Shown: positions 1 to 3,000 of the stretch, one piece after another
Layout: every line of letters begins with the position of its first letter
Position numbering within the stretch: the stretch's first letter is position 1
Source of the DNA: a virus
Lineage: Duplodnaviria > Heunggongvirae > Uroviricota > Caudoviricetes
IMG/VR virus record: IMGVR_UViG_2700989507_000009
DNA: 8,770 nucleotides
Reading direction: 5' to 3' (one strand)
Position numbers: made by a program

Positions 1-3000
1 CGGCGCGCCAGCTGTTTAATGCGCGGATCCGGAGCATCGTATGAATCCGGCAGCGGAAGCCCTTCACCGTAAGCCATGGCATTGGACTGCCCGGCCAGTA
101 CGATGACGTAGTACCAATCCGGCTCAGATGAAGGGCCGACCTGTGGCTCTCCTTCAATAGCCACCGCCTGCATCAGTGTGTACGGCGTAATGGCAACCGG
201 TCCGCCGTATGGCTGCCAGCCCTCTTTCAGTTTGTGTGTCAGCTTTTCCGCAAGGTCTGACGGCGACGCCGCCCTGACAACATCGTAATGTTTAATCGAC
301 ATCGAATTTCTCCCGTGTAGAGGAACAGAGTTAAAAAGCCGGAAGCGGAATCAAATCACAGGATGACCATCTGCCAGTGGCAGGTCATAAAAAAAAGGCT
401 GCGCAATGCGCAGCCAGAACTCACAAGGAAAATGATAAAAGGAATAACACTAGTGATGTACGCATGGCGCCTCCCGCTAAGTTCTGCAATGATCAAACAG
501 AACTCGCTACGTGCCCTTAAAACTCGATCATTTAGCCCCTCCAAGGAGGATTCACCATGCGGTTGATTTTTTAATAAACAGTAAACAAAAAAGTCAAGAA
601 TTATTCATTCTGTTCTTTCATCATCGGCCACAGCAATACCACAATGCCGCAGACCAGAGCGCCATCAGTCAGTACCAACATTATCCTGCTGGTGAAATCC
701 ATCATCACCATCACTAAAAGCAGGATCACAACAGCAAGCAGACACAGTTTATAAAACAATGTTCAGAAAACGCATTCAGCATGCCTAAGGTTCTATTCCT
801 ACGAATAGCCAACTTGCAACTTGAAATATTATTTATGCAGCCAATTAAATTCTGGTCCTTACAATATCAACCTGAAGATTCTTATCTTGTGCTGATTGAT
901 AAATGACAAACCTTTTACTACCTGCATTGAAAGAAGTAGACAAAACCAGACAATTATCATAACGAGCAAGAACATAATACCAACCATCATTATAATTAAT
1001 CATTTCATATTCTTTCTTAAACTGTGGTTTGTAATATCCTGTCAGAAATGAAAAAAGCCAAAAATATGCCACAAAAGCAATCATCACAATCTCAAAAAAA
1101 TGTTTTTTTATAAATGGCTTATCATAGAAGCATGATACCGATAAAAATCGCCCATAAGATCTTATCGAAATTGTAACCGCCAGCGCAATCGCTGCTGACA
1201 GTAGCAAAAGAGGTACCTGAATCTTCTGTCTCAATATAGAAAACTCAATAATTGCCGGCACAAACAATAATTCCACAGCAAAATAAAGGCGAAATACATT
1301 TAGCTCTTGCATAGAATGTTTTCTTTTCACTGCGAAAAAGAATACAACACCAATACCCCAACCGATAAGAAATATAGCAATGACGATAACTGCAAAAAAT
1401 AAACTTCTGGCAACATCATCAACACCTGCACCTACAATCCACCATGGGAAGCCGTAGTAAAAAGAAGTACCCCATCCATAGAAATAAGCACTCCCCCATC
1501 CAAGGCATCCCATGTAGGCAATAAAAAGTGAAGAACTCCTGAGCAGCGCACCATCCTTCATAACCACCCCAATACAAGATGATAACATTGGCTTACAACT
1601 CATAACAAAAGCAATTCAATGCCGTCAAGAGGTTACAGGCTAAAAAAACTCTATTACATAGCAGCCAGCATGTTTACCGTACAAGTACAACTCAGGGCAT
1701 AAAAAAAACCCACTCGGCAGCGGGTTTATACATTTTTTACAACATACCAAATTTGCATGAAGTATATGGCTTTTAATCCAGTTTTGCAATATTTTGCTGT
1801 AAAAATGCTGCCTTTTGTTTTGAACGTGTTCTCGTCACAAGCAATAAAGCATCACTATCAAGCTGTAGAAAAATGTGCTTCATTGCAACCCAGCGTTCAG
1901 TAAATGTCTCGGACCAGTTTTTTGTTGTCACTCCCACCAATGATGCCAGTGTCTGGTATTCATAGGCCTCACGCCCTGCAAGTTCGCTCTTCACATCCTG
2001 TGCAGCCAGCCAGATTAACGTCTTCAGGCGATCCAGTGTCTTACCTGCAATTTTTCTGTTACTTAACAAATCTTTAAACTCGCTCCATGCCCATTGCGTT
2101 ATGGTGACCTGATGCCCCCATCGAACGCTTTCGCTGTAACACCAAAGCAACCATGCTTTCTGATGTTCATCGAGAGACAAAACCGCGCGGCGCCATGAAG
2201 AGGTTGAGAATTCAACCGGGCTGACCAAAGCAATGGATGAACCTTTTGCGTACGACTGCTTACCGGAAGTCGGCGTATTATCCAGCGTAATCATCTTGCC
2301 AGTTACCACATCCAGAATGCGCGGCTTCTTTCGTTTGTATGTACCAGTATCAAATTGTGCATGCTCCTGCCAGGCTTCGAGCTGGCCTTTCGTTGCTCCG
2401 TTCAAGTCAGCAGTAGCTGCCATAAGTTGCTCACGAACATACTGTAAATATTGGGTATTCATGCAGTAAATCCTTTCTATATTTTGGCATAATTCTTCAA
2501 CATTCGGTAATCGTTCAAAACCGAATCGGGGAAACGACATAAGCACAGGAGCCCCCAGCGACAGCGAAGGAGTTCTGATATATAAGACTCAGACATCATT
2601 CATTCCCCGGTTCTCCAATATCTGTTTCACTCATCATCCATAACTACCTGTAATTGCCCCCCTTTTTTTGTAACAGTTCTTATATTGCTATATAGAATAG
2701 CCATTACTAATGCATTTAAATTTAATAAAATAAAAATTATAAAAAACATAAAACACCACGCAAACACACTTAATAAAAACACCGTTACATTAAAAGATAA
2801 TAAAACCGCAATAAAAAACGAATAAATCAATTGTCTCACGCAATTATAAAACATCATATTGATTACGCACCTTGTATTACAAACTCATGTATGTAAAATA
2901 CGCGCACCATTCAAAAAAAAGGAAGACAATAACATATGAAAAAAAGTGTCATCGCTGGCGTCTTTATTGCTCTGTCATTTACCACGTGTTCAGCTATCGC

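Follow-up and report, generated by a model that had tools for sequence, protein, structure and literature searches.

A DUF3927/TciB-family gene, apparently orphaned from its TerB-like partner, between Q and the sialate esterase gene of a caudovirus

The window analysed here, 8,770 nucleotides of a member of the Caudoviricetes (IMG/VR record IMGVR_UViG_2700989507_000009), carries a 52-codon frame on its minus strand that, judged from its sequence, is a real gene belonging to DUF3927/TciB, an already described family of small membrane proteins of phages. Its surroundings look like those of a tciB copy orphaned at a mosaic junction, where the TerB-like partner gene tciA is no longer present. Taken as a whole, the reading that this orphan is an ordinary leftover of prophage mosaicism, and not a new toxin or holin, has in our estimate a probability of about 0.7. 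The gene itself is no discovery. That it was missing from the ORF track, as a preliminary description of this DNA stated, is true of the first-stage track alone; RefSeq/PGAP has a CDS at precisely these coordinates, 601-759, and the supposedly unannotated frame is a bona fide gene already called by public pipelines.

The frame is open from 765 down to 601, with an in-frame TGA at 766-768 (Table 1). Translation from the TTG at 757-759 gives 52 aa, MFYKLCLLAVVILLLVMVMMDFTSRIMLVLTDGALVCGIVVLLWPMMKEQNE, in agreement with the initial estimate that the frame could be extended upstream to about this length. The start at ATG 709-711 preferred at that time gives a product without the first hydrophobic segment, an N-terminal element present in the Pfam model and in all homologues. 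In a Kyte-Doolittle scan the hydrophobic segments are residues 5-20 and 26-47, separated by DFTSR and followed by a C-terminal tail, KEQNE, which bears out the description of a small hydrophobic protein with two such segments and a short charged tail. Two reservations made at the outset also stand: no Shine-Dalgarno-like sequence was found before TTG759, ATG711 or the other in-frame starts, and direct reading of the sequence finds the rare codons AGG-ATA. An AF2 model of the product is one continuous 50-residue helix (pLDDT 91) that argues neither for nor against a hairpin, and because a single helix is predicted, the two-TM topology is a reading of hydropathy alone. The length of the frame is not significant in itself, since the window has 31 ORFs of at least 60 aa; what places it beyond chance is the combination of a Pfam DUF3927 match, a PHROG 1470 match and codon-level conservation. 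The opposite-strand ORFs at 511-717, 644-754 and 363-566 have no family matches and are not in the RefSeq annotation.

Table 1. Features of the window around the DUF3927/TciB-like gene.
Feature	Position	Strand	Description	Source
DUF3927/TciB-like ORF	601..759	minus	52 codons + TAA (601-603), TTG start 757-759	ORF list, Pfam PF13064, PHROG 1470, RefSeq, phage 434
Internal ATG (Met17)	709..711	minus	start proposed earlier; product 36 aa	
Upstream polytopic membrane protein, 247 aa	845..1588 (RefSeq start; longer ORF to 1603)	minus	PHROG 1521, function unknown	RefSeq WP_001302581.1
Late antiterminator Q gene	1773..2462 (RefSeq start)	minus		Pfam Phage_antiter_Q, 306 bits; RefSeq WP_001097238.1
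tR'-like terminator	1706..1727	minus	just downstream of Q	terminator scan; annotated at same position in phage 434
Putative PasD/STnc100-family sRNA gene	386..590	minus	roughly 200 nt; directly downstream of ORF, before esterase	Rfam RF02076
Intrinsic terminator	397..415	minus	8-bp GC-rich stem + T run; inside Rfam match, putative sRNA 3' end	terminator scan
DUF1737/SASA sialate-esterase (nanS-p-like) gene, 5' part	1..302	minus		RefSeq and phage 434 annotation of identical sequence
Putative mosaic junction	750..770	minus		blastn boundaries and alignment A2

The family assignment is consistent across resources. The 52-aa product matches PF13064 (DUF3927) over residues 7-50 with 53 bits (E=3.4e-14; the gathering score is 25 bits) and PHROG 1470, "TciB-like", with E=2.5e-17. 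The RefSeq protein is WP_000499454.1, and the phage 434 record names the same coordinates TciB. P1 tciB and P7 upf69.4, which adjoin tciA/terB, are homologues. Members of the family, which forms 550 clusters in Enterobacteriaceae, are very hydrophobic, predicted inner-membrane proteins of about 50-60 aa, typically 51-55, from enterobacterial phages. The window ORF has the two hydrophobic segments, together with the core of conserved residues, D21-F-T-S-[RK], L-[AT]-D32-G, W44-P45 and K48 (alignments A1, A4 and A5), with T31 where most members have A; D21, F22, D32, V36, W44 and P45 are invariant in the family alignment.

The proposed check of amino-acid conservation supports a real coding frame. 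Family-wide, among 56 distinct TerB-coupled sequences, purifying selection is apparent in a pN/pS of 0.12 and in variable sites distributed 23/10/42 by codon position, and length variants stay in frame. The window ORF compared with its relatives gives a dN/dS of 0.2-0.44; the window lineage taken by itself has too few substitutions to yield a separate value, because a first IMG/VR scan returned 80 near-identical copies, and a second scan was seeded with divergent members. Against the nearest coupled relative, pN and pS are 0.25 and 0.27 over codons 4-20, and 0.16 and 0.48 over codons 21-48. Between the window type and the O157 type, both without an intact TerB gene, dN/dS is ~0.22 over codons 21-48. 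Stops and frameshifts were looked for in homologous regions, and the frame is intact in 85/85 window-type loci examined; broken variants are rare among database proteins. The locus occurs in about 680 of 5,426 complete E. coli genomes, the E. coli copies of TerB-coupled, TerB-fragment and window-type classes together numbering roughly 3,860, and a scan of one genome per species recovered a single locus, 98% identical to the window, on a contig labelled as a Veillonella MAG. The unbroken frames and the dN/dS of ~0.22 between TerB-less types fit continued selection, and hence an independent function, but they are weak evidence either way because the copies arose very recently and undergo recombination with coupled ones.

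The context of the gene differs from that of its relatives. In 78 of 80 divergent loci, drawn from P1/D6-like and N4-like phages and from Klebsiella and E. coli prophages, an intact TerB-family ORF ends 0-4 nt into the tciB start, with GTGA or TAATG overlaps. Intact pairs are present, for example, in P1 and in the prophage of E. coli 09-00049. Not one of the 85 window-type loci has TerB upstream, and every one has TTG at position 1; tciA is absent, and the gene upstream encodes the unrelated 247-aa membrane protein, 85 nt away. As overlap with a TerB gene is a feature of context that lies outside the Pfam definition, membership in DUF3927 stands, as an orphan. Homology to tciB from other phages sets in near codon 4 (~750), and codons 1-3 and all DNA upstream of them are unrelated to the tciA 3' end of other loci. 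The blastn matches extend over 750..616 against L004, a locus with intact tciAB, and over 713..300 against L007. These loci can be placed in a junction series, from intact tciAB (L004), through a 48-aa TerB fragment followed by tciB (10 of 10 O157-type loci, for example L016), to this window and then to Stx2 phages, where STnc100 follows stx2B after 75 nt (PMC12370729). Chimeric ORFs point to frequent recombination inside the tciB gene.

Downstream, the ORF does not lie next to a free-standing terminator at 389-415, as had been described; a putative sRNA gene lies between, and the terminator would be the 3' end of this PasD/STnc100-family sRNA. The RF02076 match is full-length at 41.4 bits (E=2e-6), below the gathering score of 47, and the corresponding sites of L003, L004 and L007 reach 102-149 bits; the window sequence folds more stably than shuffles (z=-2.6). 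In phage 2B8, whose DNA matches this part of the window at 97.6% identity, pasD lies directly upstream of the esterase gene (10.64898/2026.05.13.724894), and synteny with Q, LpxR and the esterase agrees with the published PasD locus. The same order, sRNA then esterase, is found in L007-L016, and in several lineages the sRNA match begins 8-66 nt after the ORF stop.

In its usual setting tciB comes second in a translationally coupled pair and overlaps, with its start, the stop of tciA, whose product is a cytoplasmic TerB-like protein of ~140 aa. TciB may be the membrane partner or anchor of TciA, and the two may constitute an accessory module, non-essential and active at the inner membrane, comparable to the Ter determinants with their link to colicin and phage resistance. 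Here the 247-aa cargo gene would have replaced tciA by recombination at tciB codons 1-4, and what remains would be an unbroken ORF that has lost its partner, starts with TTG and has neither a Shine-Dalgarno sequence nor coupling to the gene before it, moving together with a conserved block of tciB, PasD/STnc100 sRNA and sialate esterase. Genes below the tR'-like terminator require Q antitermination or promoters of their own, and around the ORF a promoter scan gave a count equal to chance expectation and no convincing dedicated promoter. Since the ORF belongs to a Q-dependent late transcript, it would be expressed, if at all, mainly once the prophage is induced. Translation of the orphan is probably weak, and it is most likely a tolerated leftover and not the working partner of the upstream gene.

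Published data on translation and function concern relatives. The Sakai paralogue XECs205, for which an inner-membrane location and 2 TM segments are predicted, appears among the ORFs that RIBOseq lists as translated, with an RCV of 3.0 in one condition at low read numbers (PMC5597208); the window-type TTG-start sequence is not in the Sakai list searched (PMC5597208 supplements). P1 tciA/B/C were dispensable in a CRISPRi screen (PMC10695390). In our literature search DUF3927 was met only as a figure label, work on TciB consisted of P1 annotation, the CRISPRi screen and a transcriptome, with no function or TciA-TciB contact, and a search for TerB together with small membrane proteins found nothing functional. 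The label "tellurite/colicin/cell division" derives only from the similarity of P1 tciA to terB.

Several other explanations have to be weighed against an orphaned leftover. The frame could be untranslated in this lineage and persist through its youth, through recombination with functional paralogues and through the adjoining PasD/STnc100 5' flank with a possible promoter (TTGACT, 592-597). This is unlikely; in its favour are the TTG start, the missing Shine-Dalgarno sequence and coupling, the near equality of pN and pS in the TM1 codons against the nearest coupled relative, proline substitutions in TM1 of variants P0018, P0010 and P0072, non-hydrophobic repeat insertions in TM2 of E. albertii variants, the closeness of the sRNA match to the stop and the recombination seen in chimeric ORFs. 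An sRNA promoter, however, could overlap only the last few codons, which leaves the intact 52-codon frame unexplained, and pN is well below pS in codons 21-48 between two TerB-less lineages, while ribosome footprints fall on a paralogue that also has no intact TerB. A different possibility is that the ORF has acquired a new partner and works with the 247-aa polytopic protein as a membrane module, for example in exclusion or lysogenic conversion. Both products are membrane proteins, the genes are adjacent on the same strand, each of the ~680 E. coli genomes has them together, as do phages 434 and 2B8, and the ORF is unbroken in all 85 loci. All of these co-occurrences, however, are near-identical copies (at least 96-97%) of one arrangement and count as a single event. 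A tblastn search of the phage collection with the 247-aa protein found matches in phages 434 and 2B8 only, so that the pairing has no independent co-occurrence by which to judge it; the protein has no Pfam, NCBIfam or PADLOC family, the NCBIfam search giving nothing beyond one sub-threshold, irrelevant match. The junction reaches inside the opening codons of the small ORF, which has neither translational coupling to the 247-aa gene nor a Shine-Dalgarno sequence and starts with TTG, and in L003 an IS1 destroys the 247-aa gene with the small ORF still there. Across the family the partner is TerB, the conserved coupled neighbour in 78 of the 80 divergent loci being TerB-like TciA. We therefore regard the module as quite improbable, and the earlier suggestion of a two-gene module with the upstream protein is not upheld, as that gene is known only from copies of one arrangement and tciB homology begins only at about codon 4.

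The resemblance to small membrane toxins or holin-like peptides that was first remarked on would make the product a small type I toxin-like protein, or a holin or antiholin affecting lysis timing. Its size, its two hydrophobic segments with a charged C-terminal tail and its place in the late operon, ahead of the lysis cassette, all suit such a role, which we nonetheless judge to be very improbable. The sole family match is DUF3927/TciB: no Hok/Gef, holin or other toxin family matches the ORF, and PADLOC gives no defence family for it or for the 247-aa neighbour. A class II holin was rejected in the absence of holin matches in Pfam, PHROG and NCBIfam, and the lysis cassette has its own class II holin, which lies with the endolysin beyond the 1.85-kb esterase gene and outside the window. 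A type I toxin-antitoxin system was likewise rejected: an Rfam search gave no antitoxin RNA over 601-765 and, near the ORF, only the downstream STnc100/PasD match on the same strand; a convincing opposite-strand promoter is also missing. In P1, D6 and N4-like phages the family adjoins tciA, far from the lysis genes, and knock-down of P1 tciB left plaque formation unaffected (PMC10695390). A more speculative idea, which we hold to be a long shot, is that TciB is a portable small inner-membrane subunit with varying partners, TciA in most phages and the 247-aa protein here, that TciA-TciB is an uncharacterised phage module protecting or modifying the host inner membrane (against pore-forming colicins, superinfecting phages or abortive-infection triggers, for example), and that the EHEC/EPEC orphan copy is still active.

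Some of these results are of use beyond this window. Many EHEC/EPEC prophages carry copies that were probably orphaned when the cargo between Q and the lysis genes was replaced, in a region that is also the site of stx in Stx phages, and the near-constant coupling of DUF3927/TciB to a TerB-like gene hints at what to test for the function of the family. An active orphan peptide would be one more small membrane protein among the products that induced prophages make in pathogenic E. coli; no sign of activity was seen here.

Comparison with known systems places the ORF in the same way. Class II holins and pinholins (S21, S of 933W) are similarly small, with two hydrophobic helices, a charged C-terminus and a late-operon position, but there is no sequence or HMM similarity, the ORF is not beside the endolysin gene, and its relatives adjoin tciA. 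Type I toxins (Hok/Gef, TisB, Ldr, Ibs) are also short hydrophobic membrane peptides of prophages; they differ in that the ORF matches none of these families and has no overlapping antisense RNA or fold-back regulatory leader, and they are not coupled to a larger gene, whereas the DUF3927 family is translationally coupled to one. P1 TciB (tciABC operon; P7 upf69.4; D6 homologue) is, like the window copy, a phage-borne DUF3927/phrog_1470 protein of the same length with the motif D-F-T-S-[RK]...L-[AT]-D-G...W/L-P..K, and we count non-essentiality as a further common trait; P1 tciB, however, overlaps the tciA stop and starts with ATG, whereas the window copy lacks tciA and a Shine-Dalgarno sequence, starts with TTG and is only ~42% identical to the P1-like (D6-type) sequence. 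Closer are XECs205 and the other EHEC DUF3927 paralogues beginning MTVKLRL, about 60-73% identical to the window copy. These retain an ancestral GTG start with a 48-aa TerB C-terminal fragment upstream, end in the tail KRNSLHNA and precede a bona fide STnc100 in place of the PasD variant, but they lie, as the window copy does, between the antiterminator and the STnc100 sRNA and esterase genes, in a setting without an intact TerB gene.

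The small hydrophobic frame next to the membrane cargo gene is a member of the DUF3927/TciB family, and the gene is already known and annotated, because its product matches Pfam DUF3927 (PF13064; 53 bits, gathering score 25, E=3.4e-14) and PHROG 1470 'TciB-like inhibition of cell division or resistance to colicin' (E=2.5e-17), RefSeq has a CDS at exactly this position in E. coli O145:H28 (WP_000499454.1, 'DUF3927 family protein'), and the curated phage 434 record, which shares 99.9% identity with the window, names it TciB. The O145:H28 chromosomes are 100% identical to the window over 350-1750. 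Homologues include P1 tciB and P7 upf69.4, and a DUF3927 profile search returned 550 clusters at 90% identity from Escherichia, Klebsiella, Enterobacter, Citrobacter, Leclercia, and Raoultella. At least 80% of 380-800 is present in 679 of 5,426 complete E. coli genomes, with 3,861 partial or full copies overall. A 3-kb contig labeled 'MAG: Veillonella sp.' (L100, JAIITD010000172.1) holds a 98% identical copy; it almost certainly stems from an E. coli prophage and was mis-binned.

The first start codon yields a 52-aa product, MFYKLCLLAVVILLLVMVMMDFTSRIMLVLTDGALVCGIVVLLWPMMKEQNE, of which the ATG at 711 favored in the preliminary description is Met17. That description's hydrophobic frame with two segments and a charged tail is confirmed by the frame coordinates and by a Kyte-Doolittle scan, which places the segments at residues 5-20 and 26-47, with DFTSR between them and KEQNE after the second. 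Its caveats, including the lack of a clear ribosome-binding site, were also correct: no Shine-Dalgarno-like sequence lies ahead of any of the 7 candidate starts in this frame. The length of the ORF alone is unremarkable: the window contains 31 ORFs that are at least 60 aa long. AlphaFold2 with the family alignment gives a confident all-helical model (pLDDT 91) with one continuous helix at residues 2-51, so a hairpin topology depends on hydropathy, by which the 43 mostly apolar residues exceed the length of one membrane span and would fold back as a hairpin.

Coordinates of features in the window and in compared loci
Sequence	Feature	Coordinates	Strand	Remarks
Window	Open frame of tciB	765 to 601	-	Bounded by in-frame TGA 766-768 and TAA stop 601-603; first start codon TTG 757-759
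Window	247-aa membrane protein gene	845-1588	-	PHROG 1521
Window	Probable PasD/STnc100-family sRNA gene	386-590	-	Full-length Rfam RF02076 match, same strand as tciB
Window	Terminator	397-415
Window	TTGACT hexamer	592-597	-	Between tciB stop and Rfam match; could be the sRNA -35 element, the alternative being that the sRNA is processed from the tciB 3' UTR
Window	Short pR'-tR'-type transcript	1697-1789	-	Just downstream of Q; promoter-like TTGCAA-17-TATACT (1761-1789), then terminator (1706-1727); its Rfam match to STnc240 is weak (28 bits, E=0.67)
Window	LpxR (lipid A deacylase) gene	2936-3895	+	Opposite strand, between NinI phosphatase and YlcG/Q genes
Window	Sialate-esterase gene	1..302	-	Window ends inside it
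Phage 434 record	CPT_434_70	356-544	-	62-aa 'putative membrane protein', wholly within the sRNA match, includes the terminator
L001 (E. coli O145 RM9872)	Sialate-esterase gene, interrupted by ISEc20	1128-2324		Downstream of the tciB locus; annotated as two pseudogene fragments
L003 (E. coli OkiPb01684)	AgvB anti-sRNA gene	3303-3364	+	96 bits; abuts the STnc100 copy
L003	STnc100 copy	3365-3555	-	Bona fide; directly after a chimeric DUF3927 ORF
L005 (phage-plasmid)	tciA-tciB	2256-2831	-	Amid tRNA genes; a gene of the Thoeris anti-defence Tad2 family lies about 650 nt away

Within the late operon, the ORF comes after Q and a tR'-like terminator; the short transcript there corresponds in position to the late transcripts of Stx phages that are likewise short and terminated. 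Beginning 11 nt past its stop codon is a match to the STnc100 sRNA family (41.4 bits, short of the gathering score, which is 47; E=2e-6), which folds more stably than shuffled sequences (z=-2.6). Equivalent sequences in three compared loci (L003, L004, L007) score 102-149 bits and start 8-66 nt after the DUF3927 stop, and in this region the window and phage 2B8 share 97.6% identity. STnc100 is abundantly transcribed in EDL933 lysogens (PMC5331693), and PasD is an STnc100-related sRNA of EPEC/EHEC prophages with antiterminator Q and LpxR as conserved neighbors (10.64898/2026.05.13.724894), both of which are found in the window. The LpxR gene, one of the neighbors listed in that preprint, is lysogenic-conversion cargo. 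Since the RF02076 match ends in the terminator, this element is probably the sRNA's and not the end of a two-gene module. CPT_434_70 has no Pfam or PHROG family and is probably a spurious CDS call. Among 18 sampled Klebsiella/Enterobacter-type loci, STnc100 follows tciB at a distance of no more than about 450 nt in 5 and lies upstream of tciA in 1; the association is frequent, not obligatory.

Across the family, the usual neighbor is a TerB-like gene, tciA. A TerB-family gene of about 141-149 aa precedes the DUF3927 gene in each divergent relative that was inspected, among them a lambdoid prophage of E. coli (L004), a phage-plasmid of the D6/P1 type (L005), the N4-like phage Pollock (L017), Klebsiella phage 5 LV-2017 (L018), and phage LMessi (L019). 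In 78 of 80 divergent relatives an intact TerB-homologous ORF lies upstream, its stop overlapping the DUF3927 start (GTGA, or TAATG/TGATG). Overlapping stop and start codons are a signature of translational coupling. The O157-type paralogues (L007-L016) retain only a short C-terminal TerB fragment of about 48 aa (10/10), and loci arranged like the window have no TerB homologue upstream and TTG at family position 1 (85/85). In the phage-plasmid, the Tad2 and tRNA neighbors place tciAB in an accessory or counter-defence neighborhood.

Comparison of relatives, suggested in the preliminary description, did reveal conservation at the amino-acid level. From 64 distinct core DNA sequences (a second IMG/VR scan plus annotated phages), the 56 of the TerB-coupled lineage give pN/pS = 0.12, with variable sites distributed 23/10/42 over the codon positions. 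The window core against divergent members has dN/dS of 0.2-0.44, and codons 21-48 between window-type and O157-type copies 0.22. An alignment of 43 sequences shows no variation at D21, F22, D32, V36, W44, or P45, and length variants are in-frame duplications. E. albertii variants (P0030, P0048, P0066, P0071, P0072) carry 1-3 in-frame tandem 7-aa units (EAGGWRL or CGIVGLWD) in the second hydrophobic segment, where they would disrupt hydrophobicity; they represent either decay or a repeat-driven variable region. In O157:H7 Sakai RIBOseq, the paralogue XECs205 (MTVKLRLAV...KRNSLHNA), a predicted inner-membrane protein with two TM helices, is listed among the novel small genes reported to be translated, with a ribosome coverage value of 3.0 in one condition but low read counts; the window-type sequence is absent from that novel-gene list (PMC5597208 supplements). 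TciB proteins are thus selected small hydrophobic phage proteins coupled to TerB-like genes, and the window copy, which has the HMM match, motif, and selection of the family, differs solely in context: it has no TerB-like partner, no coupled start, and no Shine-Dalgarno sequence.

How the window copy is best read follows from several lines of evidence. Its two hydrophobic segments and charged tail recall small membrane toxins or holins, but a role of either kind is very improbable: the product matches no holin HMM and does not adjoin an endolysin, prophages of this type carry a class II holin of their own on the far side of the esterase gene, and no toxin family match or antisense RNA accompanies it. 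PADLOC returned no match either. A new functional pairing with the 247-aa gene, the two-gene module first envisaged, has in its favor that the two genes keep the same arrangement each time; we consider it unlikely nonetheless. The 247-aa protein has no Pfam, NCBIfam, or PADLOC family. The pairing is a single recent arrangement arising from tciA replacement and not a conserved module, because the TerB-like partner is family-wide, DNA homology to the tciB of L004 begins at about 750 (codon 4), 434 and 2B8 are the only phages of the collection that carry the 247-aa gene, always in this arrangement, and in L003 IS1 splits it while the small ORF persists. Homology to the O157-type runs from 713 through the sRNA into the esterase gene, to 300. 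Chimeric proteins join the MTVKLRL N-terminus to the window C-terminus (P0023, P0026) or the window N-terminus to the O157 C-terminus (P0024, L003), so recombination occurred within the ORF too.

We therefore favor, with a probability of about 0.7, an orphaned tciB that does not pair with the gene upstream. TciB would act as an inner-membrane partner or anchor of TciA, and the window copy would be at best weakly translated after induction. Evidence on its residual function goes both ways: all copies are intact and codons 21-48 have low dN/dS, whereas in codons 4-20 pN about equals pS against the nearest coupled relative, TM1 variants carry proline substitutions, initiation signals are missing, and window-type copies are young and recombining. 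Complete loss of translation, a sub-case of the orphan reading and not its competitor, seems rather unlikely. The one piece of functional evidence found for the family comes from P1, whose tciA/B/C proved dispensable when screened by CRISPRi (PMC10695390).

Arranged by how far incoming cargo has replaced tciAB, the loci run from intact tciA-tciB, through a TerB fragment with tciB, to a new cargo gene fused to tciB near codon 4, as in the window, and lastly to stx2AB followed directly by the sRNA, as in Stx2 phages, where STnc100 lies 75 nt after stx2B (PMC12370729).
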